Assembly (NCBI GenBank): GCA_018645365.1
Contig: JABGOP010000001.1
Coordinates: 171,024-235,023, forward strand
Reading direction: 5' to 3'
Origin: Candidatus Cloacimonadota bacterium
Lineage (GTDB): Bacteria > Cloacimonadota > Cloacimonadia > Cloacimonadales > TCS61
DNA: 64,000 bases
Made by a program: the position numbers and the translations under genes
The notes under the pieces: generated by a model
The model's database searches: none
Told to the model about the DNA's origin: nothing
What the model saw: only the letters and a program-made list of their open reading frames with translations
Shown here: piece after piece, positions 34,588-63,988 of the stretch
Numbering within the stretch: position 1 is the stretch's first letter
Layout: each line of letters begins with the position of its first letter

Positions 34588-34618
34588 AAATTATTCTCCT
34601 TTGAAATTGATTAATTTA

Positions 34619-36226: not shown

Positions 36227-36239
36227 AATTGCTCCGATA

Positions 36240-37529: not shown

Positions 37530-37541
37530 TTATCTGTCTTC

Positions 37542-40781: not shown

Positions 40782-40868
40782 GCCGAAGTGGTGAAATTGG
40801 TATACGCAGTGGATTCAAAATCCTCCGAGCTTATGCTCGTGCCGGTTCGATTCCGGCCTTCGGCACCA
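40782..40868 (+). tRNA. tRNA-Leu (anticodon CAA), type II with a long variable arm and encoded CCA
   Basis: Acceptor GCCGAAG/CTTCGGC, discriminator A, CCA. The anticodon loop is TTCAAAA on stem GTGGA/TCCTC with one U-U mismatch. The T-arm is CCGGTTCGATTCCGG. It is near-colinear with E. coli tRNA-Leu(CAA) as I remember it. Confidence 0.9.
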
Positions 40869-47470: not shown

Positions 47471-49444
47471 CTAATTTAGACCATTCTTGAAATTAAAATT
47501 TGAACTTGGTTGTTCGGCTGTCGAATTGTGAAATTTTTTCAAAATCCGATTAAACCTTTTTTGGGATGGTTTTTCAAAAGAGAAATCTAACAAAAAGTTG
47601 CGAAATCCAACTTTGTAATAAGAATCTTTATACTGTAAAAGGGAAGTTGGCAATGGTGAGATAACGCGTGTAATGTTATTTTTAATCACTTTTTCATACT
47701 CGTAATCTTTATCGCTAAAAGGATTTTCAGCCTCGACAGGCATTCTCGAATAAAAAAGTTCGGGATGAAAAAATAGCGGTACAATTCCTTTTCTATCTTT
47801 ACCTTTTTGTAGATTTTCAGCATCATTTTCGAGTGGATAAATGTAGGAATCAACATTGTTTTCTTTCAAAAATTGAATTGCCACATCATTGAGAGAATAA
47901 ACATTTTCACTTGCTAAAATAGTAATGTCATTGCGTTTTGGCAAAGCATCTAATTGTGAAATATGACTAATCATAAACTTTCTCACTCCGTTTTTATAGA
48001 AAAGTAGACATAAACTTTTGTAGAAGCCAATGTTGTTTTCGGAGATAAATTTTGGCAATTGTAAAACTAATTTAGCAATCTGTTTTTGTAAAAAGGGATT
48101 TTGTAAATCAAAATCAGCCCACTCTTTTTTGGGTAAATTCAAAATGAGATAATTAATATTGTCAAAATAAATTTTCCGTAACCATTTCAGCGAATCAATG
48201 CGTGCATAAATAGTGAAGATTTTTGGTGTTTTTATGGAACCGATTTGAGCTAAAATGTTTTGTTTTTGCCTTTTTGGCATTTGAGTTTGAAGGCGTTTTC
48301 CATCTTTTGAAAATTTATTTTTGAATCTTTTTTCAGAAAGCCCAATTAAAAAAACCTTATCATTAACTGTAAAATTATGGTTTTCAGAAACGATAGTCGT
48401 GCTTTCATCTATGTGGTGTAACTCTTTAATTTTAAGGGCATTAGTATTCATTCCATCTTGTGTTTGAACGCGTATTCTGTCGCGAATTTTGAGAGAATGA
48501 TTGTTCTGGAAAGTGAAGTTATTCTTAGATATTTCGGAAATGTTGCCGAGATGAATTCCAACAAATGGATTTTCAGTAATGGCATTTTTTACGTTTTGCC
48601 CGAAAAAATAGGTAGTTTTTTCGCGACCAAAATCGTATTGCAAAATTTGTTTTGCTTCTTCAATTTTATGCGGATTGTCAATCACCATTCGATATGCTTT
48701 TGCTACTCGATAAACATATTCTGCCGACTTCATTCTGCCTTCTATTTTTAGTGATGAAATACCGATTTCCATGATTTTTGGAACTTGTTCGATGAGTTGA
48801 ATATCTTTTAATGAAAAGAAATATTTTCCTTTTGCATTATTTTGGTAAATGCGACGACATGGTTGTCGACACTTACCACGATTTGCACTCATTCCACCGA
48901 GATAACTACTAAAAAGACACATTCCTGAAAAAGAATAACAAAGTGCACCGTGTACAAAAGTTTCTAGCTCAATGTTCGATTTTTTTTTGATTTTCACAAG
49001 TTCTTCAAAGGTTAATTCGCGTGCTAAAATTACGCGTTCAAAATTCAGTTTTTCAGCAAAATTTGCTCCGATTGAATTATGAAATCCCATTTGGGTAGAA
49101 GCATGAAGTGGGATTTGTGGAAAATATTTTTTCAATAAATAATACACCCCTAAATCTTGAACAATAATTGCAGAAATAGTGGTTTGAGAAAGGAGATAAA
49201 GAGTGTCTAAAAGCTGTGATAATTCATTGTTCTTGATAAGTGTATTCAAGGTAAGATACACTTTTTTGTTTTGTTTTTCACTTTCTTTTAGAAGAGCTTG
49301 CAATTGATTTAGTGCAAAATTTTTGGCTCGATCCCGTGCATTGAAATTACGCAAACCAAGATAAATAGCATCTGCACCACCTTCGAGTGCCGCAAAAAAA
49401 GCTTCGGTATTTCCAACGGGGAGAAGTAATTCTGGTTTATTCAT
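47471..49444 (-). CDS. Peptidase-U32-family protein, long form (657 aa)
   Basis: [12 protein letters not shown]..., conserved GADAIYLG, Cys-rich core [15 protein letters not shown] and GKCRQPCRR. There is an 8-nt overlap with ispF. Confidence 0.8.
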
Positions 49445-49910
49445 TTGTTATAATTATGCCCACTGTTGCAGAAATAGCATTGCCATTTCCGGTAGTGCCG
49501 ACACCCTCTTCAGTAGTTGCTTTTACAGAAATGTTTTTTATATTAGTGTGAAGATCGTGAGAAATGTTTTCTCGCATCTGTAAAATAAATTTTTGTAATT
49601 TTGGTTTTTCTGCACAAATGGTAGCATCCATATTTCCAACCTTATAGCCCTCTTGGGACATTAATTTTGCAACATGTCGCAATAAAATACGACTGTCAAT
49701 ATTTTTGAAATTTTCATCAGAATCAGGGAAAAGTTGCCCAATATCACCTTTTGCCAAAGCTCCTAAAATTGCGTCAATAATTGCGTGAATTAATACATCC
49801 GCATCCGAGTGACCGAGTAAACCTTTTTCAAAGGGAATTTCAATTCCACCCAAAATTAGTTTACGATTTTCCACTAATTTGTGTACATCATACCCATATC
49901 CTATTCTCAT
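49437..49910 (-). CDS. ispF: 2-C-methyl-D-erythritol 2,4-cyclodiphosphate synthase
   Basis: [21 protein letters not shown] and PKL..F signatures. Length is 157 aa. Confidence 0.93.
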
Positions 49911-49915
49911 ATTTT

Positions 49916-52594
49916 TTAGTCCACCGTAATGGATTTTGAAACATTTTTGGGAACATCGGGGTGAACGCCGTGGTCGGCAATTCCCAGAATGTCCAATTTT
50001 TCCATTTTCCTGATACTCATTTTAAGAGCCAGTAATTGCAAGACTATCGTCGAAGAAAAAACGGTCATCAATGCATCTCCAGTTTTTGGAAGTGGAATAT
50101 ATCCCCAACCATAATAACCGTTGTCATGCGGATTTGTACGAACATTTTGCAACAATTCTTCATTTTCTTCTGCAATAATAAAACCATCTGCGCCTCTAAT
50201 TTTATGAGTATTAATTTGTGAAATTGTTAAATTTACATCTCTATCATCTGGTCCTGTGATATATATAATTGGGTAATTTCGATATCCTTCTTCAAAAAAA
50301 TCAAAATCCGTAACAATCTCATTAAATAATTTTGTTCCAATTTTTGTAAGGTTAAACGGTTTTATTTTTTTAAATGAATATGTGCTAATTGCCTTAGCTA
50401 TTTTTCTGCGTTCGCCACTTGGAATTTTACGTTCTTCGGCAAGTTTTTCCATCTTATCAATGGTGTTGTTGTAGTGTTTCATCATTGCTTTAATATGCTT
50501 AATTCCAAATACTGTATTTTTCCCTAAAATTGTGTTTGGACCATGTTTGAACTCAGAAGCTTCACCCCCCTCAGTGTGATTTAAAACAGTTTCACGAATT
50601 TTTAATGCTCCCTCTTTTGCCACACCCGTAATTTTGGTGGCAGCAATATGAATAGATGGCTCCATGTATATTTTTGAAGAGACATACTCAATTTGTTCTT
50701 TTGTGTTATTTATTGTTGCTTCAATTAAAGTAGGAATATCATTTAACGATTTAAAACGAGCTTCTAGTTTTTTGGAAGCAGCTTCATCATCAACATTTTT
50801 TAAGATCATTTCTGAAACCTTAATGGCAAGATAGTAGAAAAGAGTTAGTTGATTTATGAAGCTTTTAGTGGCGGGGACGGCAATTTCTGGTCCACAATAA
50901 ATTGGAATTGACACATCACTTTTTTCTTGCCCCAAAGTGGAATTCATGTTGTTAGCTAAAACAATTAATTTGATATCTAATCCGGAGCTTTCGACATCAT
51001 TGAAAATATCGATAAGGTCTTTTGTTTCACCGCTTTGCGAGACACCAATAATGACATCATTATCTCTTAAACTTTTCGAATATTGCCCTCTAAAATCACC
51101 CGGCAAAATAGGAATAATTTCAATTCCTGCAATTTCATTAAAAAATAAAGAGGCTGTTTTTGTTGCGTGAAATGAAGTTCCGCAAGCGATAGTGTAAATG
51201 TTTCGATTTTCATTTGCCGTATTTTCGATTAATTCGATAAAATGAGCAACACTTTCATTGAATTCATCGACATCATTTTTTTCAATAATTGCATCTAATG
51301 CTTTTGAAATAAGAAATTTTTTCTTATCGAATTTTGAGTTTAAAAGATCAATAAATGTGTTTTTTTCGGAAGAGAAAAAATATTTTTTCTCAAAATTTTC
51401 TTTGACAACTTCAGCGTATAATGGATAGCATTTTTCAATAACTTTTTGATAATATTTATCTGCAATTTCTGTTTGATTAAACTCTAAAAATAATTTATTT
51501 TTAGCTTCATAATTTTCTGTTTGAATGATAATTTCAACTAATTCATTAAATTTTTTCAACAGATTTTCTTTTATTAAAAGATTAACTATTTGTTTACCTG
51601 TATTAGAGCCACCTTGAAAAAGTTTTATCAATTTCCCTGAAGATTCAATTTCAGCATTAATTTCTTGTTCCATAAAGTATTTAAATTGAGGTAGAAGTTC
51701 AGTGTCTTCGGCGCGAAGCTTAGAAAACACTGCTTTTTTCTTTATTTTTTCGCCAGTATTAATTATTAAATCAGGTTTATTAGAACGCTTTATTTTTAAA
51801 TCTTTAAAAGCAAAAACAAAAAAAGTATTATTGCTAAACTCAATGCATTCACCTTCCCGAAGAGTTATTAAATTTTTGGTAAAGCGTAAAACTGCCGTAA
51901 GGTCGGAGGATGCTAAACCAAAATTATTTCCATCAATTTCTCCAACGCCAAAATATAAGCTACTGCCAGCTTTTATTGCGTAAGAAATTTCCGTAATTGG
52001 ATCTACAATTACAGCCGCATAAGAACCAACCATTTTTACCGAAGCATTAATGATTGCAGCTCGCATACATTTTTTCCTAATTTCAGTTTGATTTTGTTTT
52101 GAGATAGAATATTTATCCAATTCATTATCAAAATAGTGCTCAATTGTATGAACAAGCATTTCTCCATCATTGTCCGAAACAACATTATGACCTTCCGAAA
52201 GGAGAAAATTTTTTAGTTCACGCGTGTTGGTGATATTGCCATTGTGTGCACCGTAAATATGTTTTTTGCATTTAACTTCGTGCGGTTGGGCATTTTTCTT
52301 TGTTACTGCTCCAAAAGTAGCCCACCGTACTTGACCACAAAAGATTTTGCCACTTTCATTTTCAATGCCAAGAGTTTTTACAAGTGTGCTTGGAGCGCCA
52401 ACATCTTTTAAAAGTGTTATATTTGTACACCTTTCTTTTTGGAAAGCTGCGCCAGTTGAATCGTAGCCACGATATTCGAGAGCTCGCAAAAGAGTAGATG
52501 CATATTTCCCCAAATTTAGGGAAACTTTTGCTAAACTCATTCCCAAAACGCCACAACCAACACCTAAAATAGGTATGTAAAATATGAATTTCAT
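49916..52594 (-). CDS. Oversized GlmS-like protein: class-II (Ntn) glutamine amidotransferase + two SIS domains (892 aa)
   Basis: CGVLG nucleophile context, RGYDSTG, NGNITN, SIS motifs ACGTSFHA and [10 protein letters not shown], and a C-terminal [11 protein letters not shown] that parallels the GlmS ...AKSVTVE. Confidence 0.7.
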
Positions 52595-53256
52595 TATTTA
52601 TCTCCTAAGATATATTTGGCAATTTCTAAGTCAAATGGCTCTGTAATTTTAAAGTTTTTTGAAGAACATTCCAAAACTGCCACAGAATAATCAAAATGCT
52701 CCAAAATTGCCGCATCATCGGTAAAATTATTTTTTGCTTTTTTGTGGCAATCAAAAATTAAATTAAAATCAAAAACTTGCGGTGTAAGTGCATTCACAAG
52801 GTTTTCTCGCGAAACAGTTTTCACTATCTTACCACGCTCGATTTGTTTAACGGTATTCTTGATTTTACTAATTGGAATTACTGCTTTTTCAGTTGTTACT
52901 TTGATTAAAAGTTGCGAAATTTCTTTTGCCGAAACAAACGGTCGTACACCATCGTGAATTAAAACAAAATCTGTATCAACTGGACATTTTTTGAGTGCAT
53001 TAAAAACGGAATCTTGTCTCTCTTTTCCACCTTCCACAAAGGTTATTTTCGGAAATTCAGCAAGTATTTTTTTTTGCCATTTTTGTTCATCTGGTGGTAA
53101 ACTGACGATTATTTCATCAATTTCGGGGTGATTTACAAAAACTTCAATAGTCCAAAAAATAAGTGGTTTCCCACTAATTTCAAGGAATTGTTTTTTTGTT
53201 TTATTTTGCAAGCGGCTTCCGTTTCCACCTGCTGTAATTATCGCGATATTTTTCAT
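52594..53256 (-). CDS. ispD: 2-C-methyl-D-erythritol 4-phosphate cytidylyltransferase
   Basis: ITAGGNGSRL, VLIHDGVRPF and TPQ motifs. Length is 220 aa. There is a 1-nt overlap with the downstream GlmS-like gene. Confidence 0.9.
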   Translation of the reverse strand: MKNIAIITAGGNGSRLQNKTKKQFLEISGKPLIFWTIEVFVNHPEIDEIIVSLPPDEQKWQKKILAEFPKITFVEGGKERQDSVFNALKKCPVDTDFVLIHDGVRPFVSAKEISQLLIKVTTEKAVIPISKIKNTVKQIERGKIVKTVSRENLVNALTPQVFDFNLIFDCHKKAKNNFTDDAAILEHFDYSVAVLECSSKNFKITEPFDLEIAKYILGDK

Positions 53257-53291: not shown

Positions 53292-53329
53292 CAAGAAAAA
53301 AGGCTTGTGTTGTTAACAACACAAGCCTT
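53292..53329 (-). terminator. Rho-independent terminator after the oxidoreductase gene
   Basis: Perfect 13-bp stem aaggcttgtgttg / caacacaagcctt around ttaa, followed on the minus strand by TTTTTTCTT. Confidence 0.85.
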
Positions 53330-53337
53330 AAATAATG

Positions 53338-54693
53338 CTATTTCTGTATTTTTGAGATTGCCATTTCGGCAGCTTTAATAAGTGGATATTTTGTCGGAGC
53401 TGTTGTTAATAGCGGATGTGTTCCTATTTGGTAGGAAACTAATTCATAAACCGTTACCTCTTTTTGAATTGCTAAACCAACCACATTAATAAGTTCACCG
53501 ACTGATTTTCCACCGTACATTTCTCCACCAATAATAGTTCCAGTACAAGGTGAAACAATTAATTTTACCATCAATGTGCTTGTGTCTGCAATAGTAGCTG
53601 GATGTCTATCTACATCGGTAAATTTTCCCACGACATAATCGATATTTGCATATTTTGCACTTTGTTCAATTGCACCCGCAGATGCGAAAACTACGCCATT
53701 TATTTCTGTAGAAAATACTGAAAGTGTACCGACAAAATTTCGGAGAAGCTTAATTCCAAAAAGGTTATAGCCCAAAATTCTAGCTTCAGCAGTAGCGGTA
53801 GAAGCAAGCATAATGTTGTCGGTTCTACCCGTTACGAAACCAATTGTTTGAGAGCAATCTCCCACTGCAAAAATGTCTTTTTGGGTGGTACGAAGATAAT
53901 TGTCGCATCGAATGGCATCATTGCTATTTATCTCTAAACCAATATTTTTTGCTAACTCACTATTTGGTTTGTAGCCAATTGCGGCAATCACAATTTCTGC
54001 ATCCAATTTTTCTCCACTCGTAAGTTTTACACCTGTTACTTTCCTGTTTTCGCCAAGAATTTCTTCGATTTTGTTGTTTGTATAAAGATTTACATTAGCA
54101 TCTTTAATTACCTTATCTGCTTTTTCTACGACTTCTTTGGAGAAAGCACGATAAAGGCAAAAATTTCCCATTTCTACAAGTGAAACTTTTTTATCTTTAA
54201 ATTTTGCAAGTTGTTCCGCAACTTCTACACCAATAAATCCACCACCGATAACCACAATATTTTTGGCTTTGTCTGTTTTTTGTCTCAATAAATCAATGTA
54301 ATCATAGCTTTTTTTGATGTATTCTACACCATCTAAATCATACCCTTTGATGAATTTTGGAATAGTCGGAGTGGAGCCGGTCGCAATTACTAATTTTCCG
54401 TATTGGAAAGTTTTTTTGCCATCTGTTTTTAGTGTTTTCTGAGTTGTGTTAATTTCGATAACTTTATCGATCAATACTTCCCCACCCGCATCAATAAAAG
54501 GTTTTGGTCCCATTGCGTTTTGAACCACACCTTCTAAATCGTGGAAGACATAAGGGATTCCACACGGCACTAAACCTTTTTCTTCCTCTTTAATAATTAA
54601 AAAACTTTTTTCTTGATTTTGTTTTTTCCCAGTTACTCCAGTGATGATTCCCGAAGGACCGCCACCAATAATTATTACATCATAGTTCTTCAT
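53338..54693 (-). CDS. FAD/NAD(P)-dependent pyridine-nucleotide-disulfide oxidoreductase, single-Cys Nox/CoA-disulfide-reductase type
   Basis: IIGGGPSG, the single redox Cys in LVPCGIPY, a second Rossmann motif VIGGGFIGVE, and FAVGDC. Confidence 0.75.
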   Translation of the reverse strand: MKNYDVIIIGGGPSGIITGVTGKKQNQEKSFLIIKEEEKGLVPCGIPYVFHDLEGVVQNAMGPKPFIDAGGEVLIDKVIEINTTQKTLKTDGKKTFQYGKLVIATGSTPTIPKFIKGYDLDGVEYIKKSYDYIDLLRQKTDKAKNIVVIGGGFIGVEVAEQLAKFKDKKVSLVEMGNFCLYRAFSKEVVEKADKVIKDANVNLYTNNKIEEILGENRKVTGVKLTSGEKLDAEIVIAAIGYKPNSELAKNIGLEINSNDAIRCDNYLRTTQKDIFAVGDCSQTIGFVTGRTDNIMLASTATAEARILGYNLFGIKLLRNFVGTLSVFSTEINGVVFASAGAIEQSAKYANIDYVVGKFTDVDRHPATIADTSTLMVKLIVSPCTGTIIGGEMYGGKSVGELINVVGLAIQKEVTVYELVSYQIGTHPLLTTAPTKYPLIKAAEMAISKIQK

Positions 54694-55856
54694 TTTGAAA
54701 TTCCTCTATTTTTATTTTTTAACATCAATATAAACGGAATTGAAGCAATTGAAATGATTGCACAAAACCGATAGGTTATAATTAAACCAAATTTGTCACC
54801 CAAAAATCCAATTAATAAAACCATTAACGAACTGACGCCGAAACTGATGGTCATATAAATTCCATTGATAAAAGCCGGATGTTCGGAATTTGTGTCTTGC
54901 ACTAGTGCCAATAAAACAGGACCAGAAGCAAACAGGAAAAATCCCATTATAAATAGCAGTGGAATCATAAAAGTGCTGTTCGAAGAGATAAATATCCACA
55001 TCAAAACGGGGTTGATAACGGAGGTAATCAGCAAAATATTTTTTCTGCCAAATTTATCTGAAATAGGACCTGCAAAAAAAGTGCCGATTGCTCCCGAAAA
55101 TTGTAAAATAGCCAATGAAATTCCCGCTAACCACAAGCTATTCCCTTGCTTGGTTAGGAAAGTGGGAAGGTAGAGTGTGAGAGATAATTTCATTGCTGCC
55201 CTAAAGATGGTAATACCAAAAATTATCACGAAAAACGGGATTAGTTTTTTGAATGTTTCAGAGGCTCCAATCTCTTTTTTCTTTTTCTGAAAATCTTGGC
55301 TGATGCTAATATTTCGTAACTTCAAATAAAGAATAAAAGATGCGATAATTCCCAATGGCATTACACGCCAGGAACCTTCTAATCCCCACCAAGAAATGGC
55401 AGCAGTAATTAAAAGTGGTCCCAAAGTTCTGGCAATTTCACCACCTAACATATAGTAGCTCATGCCCTTACCAGTTTGATTTGCGGAAACATGCTTAATC
55501 ATTACCGGAGTTGGTACATGAAAAAGAGTACTGCTAATTCCTGCGACGAACAACAAAATTAGTAGTGTTGGGTAATTGGATATATTTCCCAATAAACTCA
55601 TTGTAATAGCGGTAATTGCTGGTGTTAGAATAATGAAATAACGCACACAGATGCGGTCTGCCATTAAGCCCACAAATGGATTTAAAAGCGATGGAATTTT
55701 TCTGATAACATCTAAAAGCCCAGCCATAGAAAGTGAGATGCCTAATTTATCTATGAGAAGAGGTAAGATTGGTGCCAGAAAAGCCGTGAATATATCGTGT
55801 GAAAGATGTGCAAATGAGATTGTCAATACCTTTCCAACTTCAAATTTTTTCTTCAT
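54690..55856 (-). CDS. MFS transporter
   Basis: About 12 TM helices with an MFS loop motif GLMADRICVR. There is a 4-nt overlap with the downstream oxidoreductase gene. Confidence 0.75.
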   Translation of the reverse strand: MKKKFEVGKVLTISFAHLSHDIFTAFLAPILPLLIDKLGISLSMAGLLDVIRKIPSLLNPFVGLMADRICVRYFIILTPAITAITMSLLGNISNYPTLLILLFVAGISSTLFHVPTPVMIKHVSANQTGKGMSYYMLGGEIARTLGPLLITAAISWWGLEGSWRVMPLGIIASFILYLKLRNISISQDFQKKKKEIGASETFKKLIPFFVIIFGITIFRAAMKLSLTLYLPTFLTKQGNSLWLAGISLAILQFSGAIGTFFAGPISDKFGRKNILLITSVINPVLMWIFISSNSTFMIPLLFIMGFFLFASGPVLLALVQDTNSEHPAFINGIYMTISFGVSSLMVLLIGFLGDKFGLIITYRFCAIISIASIPFILMLKNKNRGISK

Positions 55857-55862
55857 ATTTTC

Positions 55863-56891
55863 CTAAAATCCCAATAGTAAACCAATTATTCCAGCGATTG
55901 CACCAAAAACAAGATTAACAGCTTTCACTGATAAAAATCCTCGTTTAGACTCAGCCAATAGCGGCAACATTCCGTGTCCATCTTGCACAATTGAGCTCGC
56001 CAACAGAATACTGAATGGAATTGTTCCCGATGCAAATAATGTAACAAAAACAAGATGCGGTCCCGATTCGGGAATAATGCCGATTAGCAATGCAACGGCC
56101 AAAACAACAAACATATTATTTGCAATCCAACCGTTTATATCCATAAATTGCAGTAAAATGTGAACGACAAGTAATGTGCCGAATGTCCAAAAAAATATTT
56201 TTGGAATATGAGTTTTGGCAATGTGTTCCCAAAGATGTTCTTCTAAAAAATGTTCGGGAACGGTAACAACGATGAATAAAGCGATTATGGATGTGAGCGT
56301 AATAGTTATTCTTATCCAATTCCATTGTTCTGGACCGATTTCGCCGAGAACGGTTCCCACCAAAAAAATAGAGATAATGATGAGCAGTAAAATGCGATGA
56401 GTGGAAGGCTTTCTTAAATGAATCAGAAGATTGCTTTTAGGAAAACAATCACATTTTTCTTCTTCGTGAAAAGGTAATTTATTGTTGGAAAATTTTATCT
56501 CAAAATGCTTTTTTGAAATTACTTTGTCAGTGATGAATCCAGCAATAATTCCAACTACAAAAATAATAGCTGTAAGCAGAATTGCCTTTTGCGGGAACAT
56601 TGCCAACATTATAAAAGCTTCATCTCCACTGGTTGCTATCATAGCAGTTACTACTGCTCCAAAAGAAATGATACGATGAGAAAATAAAGTTACGGCTGTA
56701 AAAGTACCAAGACATCCCGGGATAGCACCTAAAAATGCTGCTAGAAAATATTGTTTCCATTTGGATTCAGCAAGATTATTTTGCCACAATCCTTTTGTTT
56801 GAACATTAATGTACTCAATTATAAGCATCATCACGAACACAAAACCTGTTATCATTAATGCATGCTTTAGAACTTCGATTATTATTCTCAT
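55863..56891 (-). CDS. Polytopic membrane protein, resembles the putative 10-TM heavy-metal/arsenical exporter family (ArsP_2-like)
   Basis: 342 aa and almost entirely hydrophobic. It has a central cytosolic loop with HEEEKCDCFP. The family assignment is from memory only. Confidence 0.4.
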   Translation of the reverse strand: MRIIIEVLKHALMITGFVFVMMLIIEYINVQTKGLWQNNLAESKWKQYFLAAFLGAIPGCLGTFTAVTLFSHRIISFGAVVTAMIATSGDEAFIMLAMFPQKAILLTAIIFVVGIIAGFITDKVISKKHFEIKFSNNKLPFHEEEKCDCFPKSNLLIHLRKPSTHRILLLIIISIFLVGTVLGEIGPEQWNWIRITITLTSIIALFIVVTVPEHFLEEHLWEHIAKTHIPKIFFWTFGTLLVVHILLQFMDINGWIANNMFVVLAVALLIGIIPESGPHLVFVTLFASGTIPFSILLASSIVQDGHGMLPLLAESKRGFLSVKAVNLVFGAIAGIIGLLLGF

Positions 56892-56909: not shown

Positions 56910-57248
56910 TTAGAATTCTTTTAAATCTCCATTCTTGTATGCATTGTAAGCTTCTTTCACAGTCATTTCGCCTGCCCCGATAAATACTTTTATACCTGTC
57001 TGGTTAACAACAGCAGCTGCATTTCCACCCGGTCCATTTCCTGTTATAAGAACATTAATGTTGTACTCAGACATTTTCTGAGCTGTTTTTGGTCCAGCAC
57101 CGTGTGCTTCATTGGCGATTGCACGATTATCGTAAGTTTCAATTTTTTCCGTTTCTTCATCGTAAATAAAGAAAAATTCCGTTCTACCGAATCGTGGATC
57201 CATTTTAGAATCCCATTCTATTCCCTTTGCTGTTAATAATATTTTCAT
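56910..57248 (-). CDS. NifB/NifX-family (dinitrogenase FeMo-cofactor-binding-like, COG1433) small protein
   Basis: MKILLTAKG...FGRTEFFFIYD...VLITGNGPGGNA, a typical Nitro_FeMo-Co fold pattern. The start is set at 57248, preceded by AGGAGA, rather than the track's 57281. Confidence 0.7.
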   Translation of the reverse strand: MKILLTAKGIEWDSKMDPRFGRTEFFFIYDEETEKIETYDNRAIANEAHGAGPKTAQKMSEYNINVLITGNGPGGNAAAVVNQTGIKVFIGAGEMTVKEAYNAYKNGDLKEF

Positions 57249-57256
57249 TATTTCTC

Positions 57257-58126
57257 CTATTTGGTTTTTATTTTTTCCCAACTGTTTTCTAAAATTTGTT
57301 TGATTTTTCCATTATCAAACTCGACGATTGTTTTGCCCATCGTCATAGCTTTTGTGAAATTTTCATTATAGGGAATATCTGCGATAAAATCGATATTTTC
57401 TGCTTTTAGAAATTCGTGAATATCGTTAGATTTTTCCATATTTATATCCGCTTTATTGATGATACATCCAGCTTTAATTCCGAATTTTTTCACAAGTTCA
57501 TAAACTCTTTTTAAATCGTGAATGCCGGAAACAGAAGGTTCGGTTACTAACACAACATAAGTTGCTCCGGAAAGTGAAGAAACCACAGGACATCCAATTC
57601 CGGGCGAGCCATCAACAATGATGATTTCCTTCCCTTCTTTCTCCGCAATGGCTTTCGCTTCATTCTTTACTTTGGCAACTAATTTTCCAGAATTTTCTGC
57701 ACCAATTCCCAATTTTGCGTGCACCATTTTTGTGCCTGTTTTTATGTTAGATAAAAACCAATTCCCCACATTTTGCAGATTCATACTTATTGCATCGGTA
57801 GGACAAATTATCGCACAATATCCACAACCTTCGCAATCGAGAGGCTGGACAATGTATTTTTTGTCAATTACTGGGATTGCATTCCAGCGACAAACTTCAG
57901 CACATTTTCCACATTTAATGCATTTTTCTTGGTCTATTTTTGCGAGTAATCCACTGTGAAAATTTTCAGATTTTCCCCAATCTGGTTGCACTAAGAGATG
58001 CATGTCGGCTGCATCTACATCACAATCTGCCACGATTACATCTTTATCACCAAGATAGGCAAAAGAAGCAGTAATCGATGTTTTTCCGGTTCCACCTTTC
58101 CCTGAAATTATAACAATTTCTTTCAT
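57257..58126 (-). CDS. MinD/ParA-superfamily P-loop ATPase with an inserted 2x[4Fe-4S] ferredoxin domain (COG1149-like)
   Basis: Deviant Walker A GKGGTGKTS. Two ferredoxin motifs, CIKCGKCAEVC and CEGCGYCAIICP. Confidence 0.8.
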   Translation of the reverse strand: MKEIVIISGKGGTGKTSITASFAYLGDKDVIVADCDVDAADMHLLVQPDWGKSENFHSGLLAKIDQEKCIKCGKCAEVCRWNAIPVIDKKYIVQPLDCEGCGYCAIICPTDAISMNLQNVGNWFLSNIKTGTKMVHAKLGIGAENSGKLVAKVKNEAKAIAEKEGKEIIIVDGSPGIGCPVVSSLSGATYVVLVTEPSVSGIHDLKRVYELVKKFGIKAGCIINKADINMEKSNDIHEFLKAENIDFIADIPYNENFTKAMTMGKTIVEFDNGKIKQILENSWEKIKTK

Positions 58127-59028
58127 AATGCATTCTCCTGTTGATATTTGGAAATGAAAGTAATTATGTTTTCAAGTTGAACTTTTACTTCTGGGATTTC
58201 TTTGTAAAGCAGGTTTCCGGTAGAATATAATTCTGCTATCTTTCGCATATTGGGGATTTTGGCTATAAATGGAATTTTGTTTTCTGAACAATATTTTTCT
58301 ACTTTATTGTCGCCAATTCCAAACCGATTAATGATTATTCCGAAATTTTTTTTTAATTTTCGCATCGTATCCACCGCTAATTTCAGATCGTGTAAACCAA
58401 ATGGAGTTGGTTCGGTTACGAGTAAAATCAAGTCTGCATCCTTGGTCGCTTCGATTACCGGACAAGAAGTTCCAGGCGGAGCATCAAAAATTTTGATTGT
58501 ATTTTTGGGAAAATTATTATTAACATAATCCAAAGTTTGCTTTATAAGTGAAACAGCCTGCTCTTCACCGATGATAAGCTTACTCTCAATAAAATCTAAA
58601 TTATCGGATTTGAAATATTTCAATTCACCCATTTTTTTGGGTATCATTGGCAGAGATTTTGTGGGGCATAATTCGCTGCACGCATAACATCCGTGACACA
58701 ATTCAGGGAAGACCATAATCATCTCACCGAGTTTCATCACGGCGTTAAAGTTGCATACTTTCTGACAATTCCCACAAAGAATGCAATCAGTTTTTTCCCA
58801 TTTTGGAATCATTTTGAATTTATTTTCTTGATGGACTTTTTTACCTTCGATGAATAAACCTGAATTCGGTTCTTCCACATCCAAATCGGTTAAAACGATA
58901 GTTGTTTTTTCCGCCCAAAAAGAAGCTAAATTTGTGGAAAGAGTAGTTTTTCCTGTACCACCCTTTCCACTTGCAATTGCTATTTTCATTATTGATTTTT
59001 CGTTAGTGACCGCAGAGGTTATCTCCAC
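58123..59028 (-). CDS. MinD/ParA-superfamily P-loop ATPase with an inserted 2x[4Fe-4S] ferredoxin domain (paralogue)
   Basis: SGKGGTGKTT, CILCGNCQKVC and CHGCYACSELCP. There is an ATGA overlap with the downstream paralogue. Confidence 0.8.
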   Translation of the reverse strand: MEITSAVTNEKSIMKIAIASGKGGTGKTTLSTNLASFWAEKTTIVLTDLDVEEPNSGLFIEGKKVHQENKFKMIPKWEKTDCILCGNCQKVCNFNAVMKLGEMIMVFPELCHGCYACSELCPTKSLPMIPKKMGELKYFKSDNLDFIESKLIIGEEQAVSLIKQTLDYVNNNFPKNTIKIFDAPPGTSCPVIEATKDADLILLVTEPTPFGLHDLKLAVDTMRKLKKNFGIIINRFGIGDNKVEKYCSENKIPFIAKIPNMRKIAELYSTGNLLYKEIPEVKVQLENIITFISKYQQENAL

Positions 59029-59362
59029 CTCCGCAGAGATTATCGCCAGATTCTAATCCTTCTGAAATGTAGGTTTCCACGAGTCCTTTGAGATTATCTG
59101 ATTTGAGACCAATAATCACTTCGATATTATTCTGTGCAAATAAATTTTGTGCTCTCATTCCCATTCCACCAGCGATAATTGCATCACAGCCAAGCTCGCG
59201 CAAAAATGCAGGATGTGAACCTGGTTCGTGTGGTGGTGGGGTGATAAATTTTTCTTTGATGATTTTGTCGTTTACAACTTCATAAATTGCAAATTTTTCA
59301 CAATGCCCGAAATGAGCACTTAAAATTCCCTGTGTTGTTGGTATAGCGATTTTTTTGTTCAT
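59003..59362 (-). CDS. NifB/NifX-family small protein with a Cys-containing C-terminal tail
   Basis: MNKKIAIPTTQG..HFGHCEKFAIYEV...AIIAGGMGMRA. The start is set at 59362, preceded by AGGAGA, rather than 59416. The C-terminus is GDNLCGGGDNLCGH. Confidence 0.7.
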   Translation of the reverse strand: MNKKIAIPTTQGILSAHFGHCEKFAIYEVVNDKIIKEKFITPPPHEPGSHPAFLRELGCDAIIAGGMGMRAQNLFAQNNIEVIIGLKSDNLKGLVETYISEGLESGDNLCGGGDNLCGH

Positions 59363-59372
59363 TTTGTTTCTC

Positions 59373-59822
59373 CTATTTTTCTGTTTTTTCATTTCTGCAA
59401 CATTTTCCGTGACCAAAATTTCCAGCCATATCGATTAAATTTGTGGAATCGCAAGCTGGACATTTTGTGATATTTTTTTCAAAAGTTATATTGAACATAT
59501 GTCCGCAAGTACTACATTTTAAGATATTTCCGCGAAAATGTATATTGCCACCATCTATTTGTATGGCCTTGCCATTGATGATGAAATCGGCGATTTTTTT
59601 GCGAGCTTTTTCAATTAATCGGCTAAATGTAGGACGAGATATTTCCATTTCAATGGCTGCTTCAGAGTGTTCCATACCGAGATAATCAGCTAATCTGATT
59701 GCTTCATATTCATCTAATGAAAAGTTTACTTCCGACAATGTGCGAATAGGTATTCCCACAGGTTTAAACCCACAATAAAGCGGTGGCTGTTTGACAATTC
59801 TCTTTTTTTCAGGTCTCGACAT
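59373..59822 (-). CDS. DUF134/UPF0251-family predicted DNA-binding protein with a C-terminal zinc-ribbon
   Basis: FKPVGIP...SLDEYEAIRLADYLGMEHSEAAIEMEISRPTFSRLIEKARKKIA is a sigma-70 region-4-like HTH. The C-terminal part carries CSTCGH...CPACDS. Confidence 0.75.
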   Translation of the reverse strand: MSRPEKKRIVKQPPLYCGFKPVGIPIRTLSEVNFSLDEYEAIRLADYLGMEHSEAAIEMEISRPTFSRLIEKARKKIADFIINGKAIQIDGGNIHFRGNILKCSTCGHMFNITFEKNITKCPACDSTNLIDMAGNFGHGKCCRNEKTEK

Positions 59823-59886
59823 ACTAACTCCTTAAATTTTCTGCGGGCAGAGTTATGAGCATATGTTCATATGTCAAGAAAAAAGA

Positions 59887-61152
59887 TTATGTCGAAATGT
59901 GTTGAGTATTTTGTTTGAAACTGATAAACTTATTGTATTCTTCTAACGCTGATTTGTCGGCATTCAAACAGAGCGAATGGAACAAATCAAAATTTTTCTC
60001 AATAACATTCGCAATATCGGCATCAATGCTATAGTTATTGGCGGCAGAATGGAGAATTTTGAGAATTTTGTCTCGATCAAAGCCTTTTCTGTAAACACGA
60101 TCTTCCACAACTGCGGCAAAAATATCTGCTACTGCCATTATGCGTGAACCGAGTGTTAAGTTGTGGGCATTATGGTGGAATGGATAACCGTTTCCGTCTA
60201 ATCTTTCGTGGTGAAATGCTGCCCAAGTTGTGATTAAGTTTAGTTCCGAAATGGGTTCTAGAATGGTGTAAGTATAGTAGGCGTGACTTCGCATAATATC
60301 GAATTCTTTGGTTGTCAATTTTTCTGGTTTATTTAAAATTTCGAGCGGAATGGCAATTTTTCCAAAATCGTGTAGATTACCAGCAATTTCCATAAATTGG
60401 CTTTCTCGTTTGGAAAATCCGATAAAATCAGCCAATTGTTTTGCGGTCAAAGCAACGCGGCTGGAATGGGTTGCGGTGTGTTCCGACCTAAAATCGATGA
60501 GTACTTTTATCATGTGAGAAAAATCTAAAAGTTCATCTGAATTGAGTTCCACAATATTAAGCGGGATTCTTTGTTTGAGGAGGATGGAGAGTGAAGGTGA
60601 AGCAATATCAAACCAAAAATATTCTTTTTGCGAAAGATGCATAAACGCATTTACGATTTTTGGGTTAAAAGTAGTTCCAGAAAATTGTTGGATTTTTTTG
60701 CGAATATTTTCAGCTTGTGGTAAAGTGTATTCTTTTATGTTTAGTAGAATTGCTACTCTATCCGCCAAGTGAATGATTTGGCTTTCCAATCCTACGCCAA
60801 CCGAATGCTTCCAAACACAATGGTGGTCTCGAACAATTTCTGCCACTTTGGAAAATGGTTTGAACATTTTGAGAACATAATAACCAAATTCGGTGTGATT
60901 GTGTTCATCGACATAATCAAAATTTTTGATTTGTAATCGTTCTTTCAACGAAAAAGCACCAATATCATGAAGTGCACCAGCCAAAAGCAGATTGTGTTTT
61001 TGTTCGGAAGTTAGCTCCATTTCAGTACCGATTGCGTAAGCGATGTAGGCAACTTGAAGCTGATGATTACTGATGTCTGGATTTAGAAGCTCAAAAGCTT
61101 GTGAGCTACTAATGATAAGGTCAAAAAGGGAAACATGCAATTCTCTAATCAT
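59887..61152 (-). CDS. Tandem HD-domain protein with a C-terminal HD-GYP (c-di-GMP phosphodiesterase-like) domain
   Basis: The first HD has GALHDIGAF. The second has NLHDFGKIAIP and HHERLDGNGYP. Confidence 0.75.
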   Translation of the reverse strand: MIRELHVSLFDLIISSSQAFELLNPDISNHQLQVAYIAYAIGTEMELTSEQKHNLLLAGALHDIGAFSLKERLQIKNFDYVDEHNHTEFGYYVLKMFKPFSKVAEIVRDHHCVWKHSVGVGLESQIIHLADRVAILLNIKEYTLPQAENIRKKIQQFSGTTFNPKIVNAFMHLSQKEYFWFDIASPSLSILLKQRIPLNIVELNSDELLDFSHMIKVLIDFRSEHTATHSSRVALTAKQLADFIGFSKRESQFMEIAGNLHDFGKIAIPLEILNKPEKLTTKEFDIMRSHAYYTYTILEPISELNLITTWAAFHHERLDGNGYPFHHNAHNLTLGSRIMAVADIFAAVVEDRVYRKGFDRDKILKILHSAANNYSIDADIANVIEKNFDLFHSLCLNADKSALEEYNKFISFKQNTQHIST

Positions 61153-61558
61153 TTTTTTCCTTCAGATATTTTTGTTCAAAATCAGCATTATCACCAAATT
61201 CCGCAAAATTTTTTTGATGTTTTGGTTCTGCAAAATTTTTGTCTTTTTCGTGTTTAATACCGCACCAATATTTTTCGGTTTCTCCTGTAACTTTGACGGC
61301 ATAAGCCAAGATTCCATTTCCATACCCGCAATAAACACAGCGCATTTTGTCTAAAAAAGAAAGATATTTTAATTTATGACGGTCAATTTTCACATATTTT
61401 TTGCGATTTACAAGCGGAATTTTATATAACCTAAAACAAATTTGATGATAAATTTCGAGTGCAACATCAAAAGCAATAAAAAAGAATAACATTCCCCAAA
61501 TAAATGGAATTGAAAGAATGTGTCCTAGTTCTCTTTGCGGATATTTTTTAAAATTCAT
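61145..61558 (-). CDS. Hypothetical small membrane protein with a CxxC motif
   Basis: One or two TM helices (ILSIPFIWGMLFFFIAFDVAL), then RCVYCGYG. There is an 8-nt overlap with the HD-GYP gene. I recognise no family. Confidence 0.45.
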   Translation of the reverse strand: MNFKKYPQRELGHILSIPFIWGMLFFFIAFDVALEIYHQICFRLYKIPLVNRKKYVKIDRHKLKYLSFLDKMRCVYCGYGNGILAYAVKVTGETEKYWCGIKHEKDKNFAEPKHQKNFAEFGDNADFEQKYLKEKND

Positions 61559-61578: not shown

Positions 61579-62343
61579 TTATTCAATCGTACCGTAAGGG
61601 CACAATCTATTAAAATTAAAGATATTACACATTCCTGCAGCAGTTACTCCGAAAACATAATAATCTTTCTTCAAAGAAATGATTTTTTTCAAAAGACATT
61701 CAAAACTGTCATTTACTATTATGGTTCCAGTCATCACGACCACATCGACACTCTCAATTAGATATTGATTGAATTTATGACCGTCAAGTATTTTTATCCT
61801 TTTTTTGTTCAAATTATCTTTATTTAAATCCGTAATCATCACATTTTTTTCTCCAAAAGTATCGATAAGTTCGTCGGCAATTGCAGGATTTAAACCAATG
61901 AGTCCAACTTTGATTTTTCCATATTTTTCAAACAAATTTTTGGAAATATCTTTTGCACATTTTTCGGGTTTATCATTTTTACAATGGACAGTGCCTTTCG
62001 CAATTTTCAAATAATTTAAGACGGCGTTAAGTGCTGCAGTATAGATTGCTCTATTTTGATTTGAATCGAGTGAAAGTTCTAAAATTTGTTGCAAATTCCC
62101 ACTAAATTCTTTGGCAGAGTCGGTAAAGGCGTGTCCTTTTGCATCAATAAATTTTGCTTCCAAAATTCTTTCTTTACCCTCAATTATCGGATAGTCTCGT
62201 CTACCAGGTTTACCAATTGCTTCTTCAGCAGAAAGAGGATTAGCTAAAACCAAAATATTCTCTTTTTCTAAGTTGTAATTTTGGACTATTTTGAAAAAAT
62301 ATTTTCTTGATTTTTCTAAATATGTCATCTTTTCACCTTTCAT
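61579..62343 (-). CDS. DUF364/DUF4213-like protein (family annotated as putative heavy-metal chelation; Rossmann-like C-domain)
   Basis: 254 aa. The N-terminal EEAIGKPGRRDYPIIEGKE and the C-terminal VGLIGLNP...VVMTGTIIVN pattern match my memory of COG2014. Confidence 0.45.
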   Translation of the reverse strand: MKGEKMTYLEKSRKYFFKIVQNYNLEKENILVLANPLSAEEAIGKPGRRDYPIIEGKERILEAKFIDAKGHAFTDSAKEFSGNLQQILELSLDSNQNRAIYTAALNAVLNYLKIAKGTVHCKNDKPEKCAKDISKNLFEKYGKIKVGLIGLNPAIADELIDTFGEKNVMITDLNKDNLNKKRIKILDGHKFNQYLIESVDVVVMTGTIIVNDSFECLLKKIISLKKDYYVFGVTAAGMCNIFNFNRLCPYGTIE

Positions 62344-63482
62344 TAATAGATATCTATTTTAAGAAGACGACCGTCTAAATTTCCATTTTTAAGTGGTATT
62401 TTGCGTGATGGTTTTAAGCCAATTGCTGGAATTAATGTGCGATCACCAACATAAATATAGGCGGTTGAATTTTTGCATCTTTGTTTAAGAAAATCACCAA
62501 ATTCTTTGTAAAGTTTTGTAACACTTTCTTCATCGCCCAAACGAATTCCATAGGGTGGATTACAGACGATTATTGCGTTGTGAATTTCTGGTAAATTTTT
62601 GAAGTTAGATTGTTGGAAATTAGCTAAATTTCCAGAAGGTAAAGTGCTTGCATTTGCGATTGCGTCTTTAATTGCGTGAAAGCTAACATCACTTCCAAAA
62701 AGTAAATTTTTGGGTAATTCACGTAAATTTCGATTACTGTTTTCTTTTACTTTTAACCATTCAGTTTCATCAAAATCTGGCAAGTTTTCAAAACCAAATT
62801 TGGCTCTTTTGTGATTTGCGGGAATTCTGCAATAGTGCATCAATGCTTCGCAGAGCAGCGTTCCGCTACCACACATTGGGTCGTAAAGAGGTGTTTTGCC
62901 ATTCCATCCAGAAAGCCGAATGATAGTAGCTGCCAAGGTTTCTATCATCGGAGCAGAACCTTTGGAGGTGCGATATCCTCTTTTATGAAGCGGTTGACCG
63001 GATGTGTCTAAGCTTATTGTGGCACGATTTTGATGGACAAATAGGTTGAAAACCACATCAGGATTTTCGGTGTCAATGTTCGGTCGTTCACCGTATTTAT
63101 CTTTGAAATAATCGGCGATTGCATCTTTCAAAATAAGCGAAGCGTACTTGGAATGTTTGATTTTACTATTGGCAACATTTGCGTAAATAGCGAAAGTTTT
63201 TTTCAAATCAAGGATTTTGTCCCACTCTATTTTTACCGCTGAATTGTAGAGATATTTGGTGGAATGGCAATCGAAAGTGAGGAGCGGTGCCAAAATTCTG
63301 CTGATAACTCTACTTTGGAGATTAATGCGATAAATGTGAGACAAATCAGTTTCAAAGTGGATGCCACGATAGACCGTGTTGATTTTTTTTGCGCCAAATT
63401 CTTTCAATTCTGTTGCTCCGATTTCTTCCATTGAACCGGCAATTTGGGCGAAAAATTTGTGATGTTTTTGATATTCAAACAT
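62343..63482 (-). CDS. THUMP-domain class-I SAM-dependent RNA methyltransferase (RlmL/RlmK-like)
   Basis: N-terminal THUMP-like region. SAM-binding DPMCGSGTL and catalytic NPPYG. Confidence 0.8.
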   Translation of the reverse strand: MFEYQKHHKFFAQIAGSMEEIGATELKEFGAKKINTVYRGIHFETDLSHIYRINLQSRVISRILAPLLTFDCHSTKYLYNSAVKIEWDKILDLKKTFAIYANVANSKIKHSKYASLILKDAIADYFKDKYGERPNIDTENPDVVFNLFVHQNRATISLDTSGQPLHKRGYRTSKGSAPMIETLAATIIRLSGWNGKTPLYDPMCGSGTLLCEALMHYCRIPANHKRAKFGFENLPDFDETEWLKVKENSNRNLRELPKNLLFGSDVSFHAIKDAIANASTLPSGNLANFQQSNFKNLPEIHNAIIVCNPPYGIRLGDEESVTKLYKEFGDFLKQRCKNSTAYIYVGDRTLIPAIGLKPSRKIPLKNGNLDGRLLKIDIY

Positions 63483-63484
63483 AT

Positions 63485-63988
63485 TTATTCCTTTATTTTT
63501 AGTTTTTTGTAAATCATTATTTTTTCTAGCATTAAAGATGAAATTATGATAAGCGGAAGTGAAACAAATAATCTAATTAAGGTGAATTTCATACCTAAAA
63601 ATGATGCTTCAAAAATTGTCATTGGGACGCGACAAACAGCAGCAGCACCGATATAAGTAAAGATAATGCTCAATTTAGCACCTTTATTATATAAAACGGC
63701 GGCAATCGGAAACGAAATGTAAATTCCGCCAACGGTGGTTGTGGAAAGTAAAATTGCCCAAAAATAACCTCGCCAATTTGAATTTTCTCCCAGGTGTTTT
63801 TCGATGGTTTGGCGTTTTATCCAAACTTCAAATAATCCAATTAAAATAAAAGCTGCGGGTAAAATTTTTAGCATTGCAACTGTGAATTTTATGAAATTTC
63901 TGGAAATTGATTGTCCGATTTCAAAATTAAAAATTTGGGCAAAAATAATGAAAATCAGAAAAATGATAAAAGGAGTAATTTTTTTCAT
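63485..63988 (-). CDS. Small polytopic permease (half-size, DUF318/ArsP_1-like?)
   Basis: 167 aa with about 5 TM helices. The family call is tentative. Confidence 0.35.
   Translation of the reverse strand: MKKITPFIIFLIFIIFAQIFNFEIGQSISRNFIKFTVAMLKILPAAFILIGLFEVWIKRQTIEKHLGENSNWRGYFWAILLSTTTVGGIYISFPIAAVLYNKGAKLSIIFTYIGAAAVCRVPMTIFEASFLGMKFTLIRLFVSLPLIIISSLMLEKIMIYKKLKIKE

Follow-up and report, generated by a model that had tools for sequence, protein, structure and literature searches.

Evidence for a gene cluster of the ORange Protein type in a Cloacimonadota bacterium, with a candidate operator for its DUF134 protein

Desulfovibrio vulgaris, D. gigas, and D. alaskensis possess a gene cluster named ORP (ORange Protein complex), which was, according to the later papers that cite the work, first described by Fievet et al. 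in 2011 (cited in PMC6345978, PMC8359166, PMC3897727). The paralogs Orp3 and Orp4 are MinD-like and contain two [4Fe-4S] ferredoxin motifs each, Orp8 (ORP) holds a non-covalent [S2MoS2CuS2MoS2] cluster, and an Orp5 homolog binds [2Fe-2S] (PMC6345978). Orp3, Orp4, and Orp8 co-purify in D. vulgaris Hildenborough, and Orp9, or MrpORP, a fusion of Mrp and Di-Nase domains, passes Fe-S clusters to Orp3-Orp4-Orp8 (PMC6345978). In D. vulgaris Hildenborough, the genes are arranged in the divergent operons orp5-4-3 and orp7-8-9, which are under the control of sigma-54, IHF, and the redox-sensing activator OrpR (PMC3897727, PMC8359166), a regulator reported to be restricted to Deltaproteobacteria (PMC8359166). 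Here, we describe a minus-strand cassette at positions 56910-59822 of a 64,000-nucleotide stretch from an uncultured Candidatus Cloacimonadota bacterium (assembly GCA_018645365.1, contig JABGOP010000001.1, positions 171,024 to 235,023; hereafter, the window), which is very likely an ORP-type cluster. The cassette is not an orphan, but a further member of the cluster known from Desulfovibrio, from which it differs in its regulation and accessory genes.

The original prediction for this locus, made from the sequence, had proposed a self-regulated machine that handles metalloclusters or traffics metals at the expense of ATP, with small cluster carriers, and had held that its families (COG1342, COG1433 outside nif, and COG1149) have no experimentally defined role. 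The general idea agrees with published work and with our neighborhood survey, but the second statement was incorrect, since the Desulfovibrio ORP complex has already been studied. A function has been published only in part: the complex has been described, and its cellular role was called "unclear" in 2021 (PMC8359166).

All five minus-strand open reading frames (ORFs) of the cassette and their family assignments were confirmed, with one change of coordinates. In order, they encode a DUF134/UPF0251 helix-turn-helix (HTH) protein with a C-terminal zinc ribbon and a GHGKCC tail (59373-59822; Pfam DUF134, E 8e-23); a first NifX-fold protein, NifX-like 1 (59003-59362; Pfam Nitro_FeMo-Co, E 3e-19); two paralogous Orp3/Orp4-like ATPases of the SIMIBI/MinD-like P-loop type with an inserted 2x[4Fe-4S] ferredoxin domain, ATPase A (58123-58989) and ATPase B (57257-58126; Pfam CbiA/ParA and Fer4 for both); and a second NifX-fold protein of the ORP/Orp8 type, NifX-like 2 (56910-57248; Pfam Nitro_FeMo-Co, E 2e-18). 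ATPase A had been placed at 59028-58123, starting from a GTG that merely gives the longest ORF. Three of the four public gene calls start instead at the ATG at 58989 (MKIAIASGKGG), which puts the Walker A motif at residues 7-15, the position kept in 66 orthologs; on these two grounds, 58989 is most likely the true start. NifX-like 1 and ATPase A then no longer overlap, and the intergenic gaps of the cassette are 10, 13, −4, and 8 nt, the two ATPase genes overlapping by 4 nt. An identical protein was found on contig JABHMI010000109.1 of assembly GCA_018693745.1, and the nearest homologs are named Cloacimonetes. As had been noted before, the window contains no nitrogenase genes: the scans gave no nif-related gene beyond the two NifX-fold proteins. 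No Mrp-like P-loop gene or further P-loop homolog was found in the 64 kb either.

As in Desulfovibrio, the cassette thus encodes two paralogous MinD-like ATPases with 2x[4Fe-4S] motifs. ATPase A and ATPase B share 33% identity, and each contains the deviant Walker A motif SGKGGTGKT, with its signature lysine (K9/K10), and two CxxCxxCxxxCP motifs, which together supply eight ferredoxin Cys residues for two [4Fe-4S] sites. The two proteins are ancient paralogs and belong to distinct orthologous groups, each present in more than 65 species. The Walker A motif, the eight ferredoxin Cys residues, and a single switch-II Cys were kept in 99-100% of the orthologs of both ATPase A (Cys176; 66 orthologs) and ATPase B (Cys179; 68 orthologs). 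In an AlphaFold2 (AF2) model of ATPase B (predicted local distance difference test, pLDDT, 83), the core matched MinD, FleN, and FlhG, and also NifH, BchL, Cfd1, and Mrp-type HypB (TM 0.55-0.64), and the ferredoxin insert occupied residues 49-127, directly after switch I. Our search found no solved structure of a whole ferredoxin-inserted ATPase.

The second likeness is an ORP/Orp8-type NifX-fold protein, as judged by sequence homology, with the cluster binding itself predicted. Over 107 amino acids, NifX-like 2 and D. gigas ORP share 36% identity (E 1e-18), and the PDB matches of NifX-like 2 were D. gigas ORP (2wfb; E 5e-12), TM1290 (E 4e-14), and MTH1175 (E 3e-10). Across 66 orthologs of this type, no Cys or His residue was conserved, which fits the non-covalent binding of an anionic cluster. 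The third likeness is a second small His/Cys Di-Nase protein. NifX-like 1 is Orp5-like by its motif and by its best NCBIfam match, the C-terminal Di-Nase domain of MrpORP (E 9e-34); it contains an AHFGHCE motif, and its residues H17, C21, H45, and C110 were kept in 89-96% of 53 orthologs. Both proteins share their small fold with the cluster-binding proteins of IPR003731 (NifX, NafY, the C-terminal domain of NifB, and IssA), whose members accommodate metal-sulfide species of a complex, anionic kind, in many cases with no Cys ligand (PMC5524996). In contrast to these, the window proteins have no nif genes nearby and no IssA-type cationic C-terminal tail, and the NifX-fold proteins scored 17 bits with the nifX model TIGR02663, for which the cut-off is 112.

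A search with the D. gigas ORP sequence provided a direct link between the two arrangements. It recovered a locus (L084; loci are cited below by such numbers) with a 75%-identical ortholog of D. gigas ORP, in which the gene order is DUF134, an RG-rich 112-amino-acid protein, ORP, ATPase, ATPase, a His/Cys-type NifX, and a Zn-ribbon protein. This order is collinear with the window.

To describe the distribution of the cassette, we used an alignment of both ATPase paralogs as the query in a scan in which each GTDB species was represented by a single genome. Among the first 600 pattern matches, 398 were confirmed relatives, and 80 loci from different GTDB species were kept, in which gene families were scored with hidden Markov models built from the window proteins. 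The bacterial loci came from Bacteroidales, Calditrichota, Neomarinimicrobiota, Spirochaetota, Campylobacterota, Dehalococcoidia, Planctomycetota, Desulfobacterota, Atribacterota, and Omnitrophota, and the archaeal loci from Methanocellaceae, Methanophagales, Methanosarcinales, and Altiarchaeota; restriction to anaerobes is a further feature shared with Desulfovibrio ORP. The ATPase A-B pair was in tight tandem or fused in 67 of the 80 loci. At least one NifX-like gene lay within 3 kb in 62 of these 67 loci, and at least two in 49; a DUF134 gene was present within 5 kb in 26. Outside this sample, CD2169 of Clostridioides difficile has been described as such an ATPase (PMC3445491). The arrangement of the cassette is far from chance, and the survey of anaerobes that had been proposed bears out the tandem pairing of the ATPases with NifX-like genes in most loci. 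A Mrp-like P-loop gene without the ferredoxin insert was present in 22 of the 67 loci; six such genes were fused to a NifX domain, like MrpORP (L024, L029, L037, L038, L041, and L068). Other fusions joined ATPase A to ATPase B (L018 and L055), ATPase B to ORP (P0104), and DUF134 relatives to an ORP-like domain (L064 and L080) or to DUF5320 (P0128 and P0207). These fusions predict the corresponding protein contacts; those of ATPase A with ATPase B and of ATPase B with ORP, together with the published co-purification in D. vulgaris Hildenborough, lend indirect support to a physical complex of the ATPases with ORP.

The DUF134 protein contains a sigma-70 region-4-like HTH (Pfam), while Pfam zinc-ribbon matches remained below their gathering scores. 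The zinc ribbon is instead indicated by four invariant Cys residues (C103, C106, C121, and C124), followed by an invariant GHG-CC tail (H138, C141, and C142), in 38 homologs. In an AF2 model (pLDDT 75), the HTH (residues 36-83) superposed on ECF sigma-70 region 4 and on DeoR at 0.7-1.0 Å, and the beta strands after the HTH fitted a zinc ribbon; we found neither a solved structure nor a whole-protein structural match. The searchable literature contained nothing functional on DUF134, UPF0251, COG1342, COG1149, PF11449, or the palindrome sequence described below.

Within the 64 bp that precede the DUF134 gene, the minus strand carries TTGACA, a perfect −35-like hexamer of the candidate operon promoter (59877-59872), followed at once by the 18-bp palindrome TATGAACATATGCTCATA (59871-59854), in which eight of the nine pairs are symmetric and which we regard as a candidate DUF134 operator. 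This was the sole strong site in the window, with 26.6 bits and an exact match to ATGANCATATGNTCAT. In many phyla, DUF134 start codons are preceded, at a distance of 20-45 nt, by the same palindrome, with the consensus TTATGAnCATATGnTCATAA. This palindrome upstream of such clusters across phyla, with a core that also marks ArsR/SmtB autoregulators, is new here.

A position weight matrix (PWM) was built from 19 sites and used with a threshold of at least 14 bits. The forward scan gave 58 sites in 1.09 Mb of loci, versus 1.8 in shuffled sequences. Among the genes starting just downstream of sites, the tally for DUF134 was 23 (several genes having two sites), and 15 more were NifX, ATPase A, DUF5320, or DUF364 genes heading cluster operons without an adjacent DUF134 gene. 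Paired palindromes, 22-34 bp apart, were common. The high-GC ORP locus L084, which was outside the PWM training set, had a 22.8-bit site about 30 bp upstream of its DUF134 gene. In the reverse test, we examined 80 metagenomic contigs with the exact 16-mer ATGAACATATGTTCAT: 38 of the 80 16-mers were located at most 300 bp upstream of a cluster-family gene (DUF134, 23; DUF5320, 9; NifX, 5; ARMT1, 1). The sites with neither a cluster gene nor an ArsR gene nearby had no informative common neighbor.

In L017, L019, and L021, the palindrome lies inside the spacer of a TTGACx-17 nt-TATAAT promoter. It would thus not be transcribed, which makes an RNA hairpin unlikely and points to a DNA element. Rfam likewise gave only a tRNA in the window, and neither a Moco riboswitch nor one of another kind. 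Control by sigma-54, known from Desulfovibrio, was also considered, but no −24/−12 match was present within 59823-59960; since OrpR has been reported only from Deltaproteobacteria, sigma-54/OrpR control is a feature of the model organism and not of the family. Apart from the ArsR-like gene discussed below, the genes divergent from the sites were mutually unrelated, and therefore no alternative recurrent regulator emerged. Autoregulation by DUF134 through the palindrome would be the most economical reading of this candidate operator. A second putative operator at 35499-35514 (one mismatch, 11 bits) was rejected; it falls within the coding sequence of a KamA-like protein, and its presence agrees with the 0.52 such sites expected per window by chance. 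Separately, a weaker copy of the palindrome (13.2 bits) was observed inside the DUF134 gene at 59490-59507, exactly over the codons of the conserved zinc-ribbon motif C-G-H-M-F-N, and the same intragenic arrangement was seen in L012 (6232-6249). This copy could be a by-product of coding or an auxiliary operator.

The original prediction had limited the unit to five genes, which is too narrow. On the same strand, NifX-like 2 is followed after 18 nt by a 10-TM ArsP_2 permease of the "arsenic efflux protein" subfamily (55863-56891; Pfam ArsP_2, E 2e-38; NF037962, 154 bits versus a cut-off of 100), after a further 6 nt by an MFS transporter (54690-55856; Pfam MFS_1, E 2e-34), whose co-transcription is predicted from spacing, and then, with a 4-nt overlap, by a CoADR/NADH-oxidase-like single-Cys flavoprotein disulfide reductase (53338-54693; Pyr_redox_2, E 2e-57). 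The latter has the single redox Cys motif VPCGIPY; CoA-disulfide reductase models gave 218 bits, below their cut-off of 458. Eight nucleotides past its stop codon, pattern matching identified a strong intrinsic-terminator-like hairpin with a 13-bp stem and a T-run (53300-53329, minus strand), the only long-stem terminator-like site on this strand between 59822 and 53300. Based on the small gaps and this hairpin, the transcription unit probably comprises eight genes, an extent that has not been described before. Upstream of the operon, a DUF364 ("putative heavy-metal chelation") gene (61579-62343, minus strand; PF04016:DUF364 precomputed for the same gene in L001/L002; no match in an NCBIfam scan) is probably functionally linked, but outside the operon.

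Unbiased clustering of the neighbors in 81 loci identified the recurrent partners of the cluster: radical SAM proteins (21 loci), DUF5320 (20 loci), NifU_N scaffolds (18 loci), ARMT1/DUF89 (16 loci), Zn_ribbon_8 (15 loci), metallo-beta-lactamase-fold proteins (13 loci), sigma-54 activators (11 loci), TrmO_N (10 loci), CoADR-like proteins (10-14 loci), ArsP_2 (8 loci), and DUF364/DUF4213 (at least 6 loci). NCBIfam gave no match above cut-off for the radical SAM, DUF5320, DUF364, 137-amino-acid, and 172-amino-acid neighbors. ArsP_2 was found in or beside the cluster in Calditrichota, Bacteroidales, Methanocellaceae, Desulfobacterales, and Acidobacteriota; in a Methanocellaceae locus, its translation is coupled to that of the cluster, and in Calditrichota it lies directly beside NifX genes. 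DUF364/DUF4213 is embedded in the cluster in L004, L025, L040, L045, and L052.

From these data, we propose a scheme in which the two ATPases handle clusters on the NifX-fold carriers within an eight-gene operon repressed by its own DUF134 product; we consider this package moderately probable. ATPase A and ATPase B would form a nucleotide-dependent heterodimer of the SIMIBI class, in which the switch-II Cys residues of the two subunits would face each other, as in NifH, Cfd1-Nbp35, and CooC-type proteins. The ferredoxin domains, hinged on switch I, would supply low-potential electrons, and the heterodimer would draw on ATP and these electrons to assemble, remodel, or pass on a metal-sulfide cluster of anionic character (Fe-S or a Mo/W-Cu thiometallate). 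The cluster would sit on the two NifX-fold carriers, one with His/Cys ligands and the other of the non-covalent thiometallate type. A DUF134 dimer would act as a local autorepressor on the 18-bp palindrome just downstream of TTGACA, and its zinc-ribbon/GHGKCC tail may sense metal, cluster, or redox state and thereby lift repression.

The ATPases of this scheme resemble two known groups. Like the carriers Mrp, NBP35, and ApbC, including MrpORP, they have the SIMIBI P-loop fold with a deviant Walker A, and the Mrp family handles Fe-S. Unlike these, they have a single conserved Cys (C176/C179) after Walker B/switch II instead of a C-terminal Cys pair bridging a [4Fe-4S] cluster, which in MrpORP is C215/C218, residues that have been mutated (PMC6345978); moreover, they carry an inserted di-cluster ferredoxin domain and scored 36-45 bits with the MrpORP model, against a cut-off of 450. 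With the reductases NifH, BchL, and CfbC they share a dimer-dependent ATPase fold, a switch-II Cys, and Fe-S clusters coupled to nucleotide state, with the TM values given above. However, their clusters are in the inserted ferredoxin domain, no equivalent of NifH Cys97 was identified, there is no NifDK-like partner, and Pfam Fer4_NifH scored below its gathering threshold.

The presence of the ArsP_2 and MFS permeases and of the CoADR-like reductase in the same unit would place the system in thiophilic-metal/sulfide homeostasis or cofactor trafficking rather than in cell division, and suggests that, in a sulfidic habitat, the window operon helps to balance or traffic thiophilic metals. For the same reason, the cluster or its metal might cross the membrane in this organism; this extension of the scheme to export or detoxification is doubtful. 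Other Cloacimonadota loci (L022 and L025) carry Mrp in place of ArsP_2, MFS, and CoADR-like genes, so that the accessory genes are variable and the export idea may be lineage-specific or wrong. A broader version, equally tentative and in our view unlikely as it stands, would have DUF134/UPF0251 proteins as widespread metal- or cluster-sensing autorepressors acting on the ArsR/SmtB palindrome TGAACA-N2-TGTTCA, with the ORP module assembling, in this lineage, a thiometallate or metal-sulfide cluster that is exported or imported via the co-transcribed ArsP_2 and MFS permeases. If true, ORP systems across bacteria and archaea would be wired into thiophilic metal(loid) and sulfide homeostasis.

Several points weigh against the reading given above. 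The window locus is known from sequence alone. Its operon is a single co-directional unit instead of two divergent ones, with ArsP_2, MFS, and CoADR-like genes appended; it has a sigma-70-like promoter and a palindrome in place of the sigma-54/OrpR/IHF control of Desulfovibrio; and MrpORP (Orp9) is missing from the 64 kb. Co-transcription of the eight genes was deduced from spacing and a pattern-matched terminator, and ArsP_2, MFS, and CoADR-like genes are inconstant partners of the cluster. The ferredoxin insert of ATPase B was modeled with low confidence (pLDDT 55-63). The 16-bp core of the palindrome is identical to that of operators adjacent to ArsR/SmtB genes, and DUF134 as its binder is thus not proven. 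The counterpart of the window regulator in D. vulgaris is presumably DVU2107/Orp7, a presumed DUF134 protein; this correspondence draws on the collinear locus L084. Lastly, the function proposed in the literature for the ORP complex is in cell division, a role called "still unclear" in 2021 (PMC8359166).

That proposal is the basis of one competing explanation, in which the module, following the first suggestion for Desulfovibrio, would serve spatial organization or cell division in the manner of MinD, the ATPases positioning a division or polar complex and the metal centers acting only as redox sensors. The ATPase core is indeed nearest to MinD and FleN in sequence and fold, inactivation of OrpR is reported to cause morphological defects, and MrpORP is reported to have a polar localization (PMC8359166, PMC6345978). 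We nevertheless regard this explanation as very unlikely. The MinD models remained far under their cut-offs (TIGR01969, 48 and 65 bits versus 201.75; TIGR01968, 28 and 48 bits versus 212.9), the features that define the system beyond the ATPase core are Fe-S and NifX-fold domains, and its recurrent neighbors are NifU, Mrp, radical SAM, DUF364, permeases, and flavoprotein reductases, with no cell-division-related family among the ten annotated; the authors themselves described the role in the words quoted above. Alternatively, the ATPase pair could be an ATP-gated donor of low-potential electrons, similar to NifH/BchL or to dehydratase activators, that serves a reductase, the NifX-fold proteins being substrates or cofactor carriers without any cluster assembly or trafficking. 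The position of the ferredoxin domain directly after switch I, the invariant switch-II Cys, the NifH/BchL-like fold, and the CoADR-like reductase in the operon would all suit such a donor, but no candidate catalytic partner is conserved beside the ATPase pair, the Fer4_NifH scores are under threshold, and the frequent co-occurrence with NifU_N and Mrp scaffolds and carriers points to cluster handling. The donor is therefore improbable compared with cluster handling on the NifX-fold carriers.

A further alternative concerns the regulator: the palindrome might be the operator of a trans-encoded metal sensor of the ArsR/SmtB type, with DUF134 being, for example, an adaptor or a DNA-binding accessory. 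About 10 of the 80 metagenomic occurrences of ATGAACATATGTTCAT were found directly upstream of ArsR/SmtB-type winged-helix genes (L089, L097, L121, L124, L128, L129, L131, L134, L145, and L159), typically with ATATGA...TCATAT flanks, and in L028 the site lies between DUF134 and a divergent ArsR-like gene; the operon moreover includes a permease of an "arsenic efflux" family. The 16-bp core is thus common to the cluster sites and to ArsR/SmtB operators (12-2-12 inverted repeats). In contrast to the latter, the regulator encoded beside the window site is DUF134, whose HTH is sigma-r4-like and not a winged helix, and the flanks tend, subtly, to TTATGA...TCATAA. No ArsR-like gene was present in the 64-kb window, and only six were found in 83 loci, one of them (L028) beside a site; in the forward test as in the reverse test, no gene followed the site directly more often than DUF134, and the site was kept even in high-GC Desulfovibrionaceae-like loci. 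An ArsR/SmtB sensor acting in trans is thus quite unlikely. Two unrelated HTH families nonetheless appear to share one operator core, which may reflect cross-talk or convergent evolution.

ORP-type clusters are among the most widely conserved anaerobe-specific gene sets, our sample spanning Bacteroidota, Cloacimonadota, Calditrichota, Chloroflexota, Planctomycetota, Desulfobacterota, Campylobacterota, methanogens, and ANME-related archaea. Filing the cassette correctly prevents its rediscovery as an orphan and leaves as points of interest the function of this widespread system, the candidate DUF134 operator, and the overlap of the latter with ArsR/SmtB operators. The handles gained are an 18-bp candidate operator for the DUF134 family, the switch-II Cys and the His/Cys tetrad as mutation targets, and fusions that predict partners; the ArsP_2, MFS, and CoADR-like context suggests metal or sulfide stress as relevant conditions.

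Some features of the recurrent neighbors deserve description. DUF5320 proteins are Gly/Arg-rich, with a C-terminal coiled-coil-like segment; their genes often come right after DUF134 (L005, L008, L012, L062, and L084, among others), and a palindrome copy of their own is frequent. RG-rich tails similar to DUF5320 also occur in several DUF134 proteins; DUF5320 itself is absent from the window operon. Genes for CoADR-like flavoproteins (450 or 620-655 amino acids) adjoin NifX-fold genes or overlap them, the spacing ranging from −3 to 36 nt (L005, L008, L010, and L018), which suggests a recurring module of NifX and a persulfide/disulfide reductase, separate from the ATPase pair.

Between the operon promoter and the DUF364 gene, region 59887-61558 encodes, likewise on the minus strand, a 421-amino-acid protein with HD/HD_5 matches across its length and a weak HDOD match, which is of the HD-GYP type and possibly a cyclic di-GMP phosphodiesterase. 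Its gene overlaps by 8 nt that of a 137-amino-acid predicted membrane protein with a CVYCGYG motif and no Pfam or NCBIfam family. The minus-strand array upstream (61579-63988 and beyond; L002, 2223-4642) contains DUF364, RlmL, an ArsP_1 permease split into two genes of about 160 amino acids each, a 172-amino-acid protein without assignment, and a radical SAM gene. The latter, located just past the window end (L002, 2223-3158), belongs to the family that recurs near ORP clusters (E 1.5e-99), and the functional neighborhood may thus be about 20 kb long.

Elsewhere in the window, region 49437-53256 contains IspD-like (52594-53256) and IspF-like (49437-49910) genes flanking an 892-amino-acid GATase/SIS-domain protein, followed by a U32 peptidase; these annotations are precomputed Pfam calls on the identical contig L001. 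The only Rfam match was a tRNA gene on the plus strand (40782-40865). Finally, the minus-strand region 33224-38861, as judged from translations, has the look of an amino-acid (lysine-type) fermentation cluster, with CoA-transferase A/B-like genes, a KamA-like radical SAM aminomutase of 535 amino acids, and two proteins (429 and 439 amino acids) that resemble dehydrogenases.

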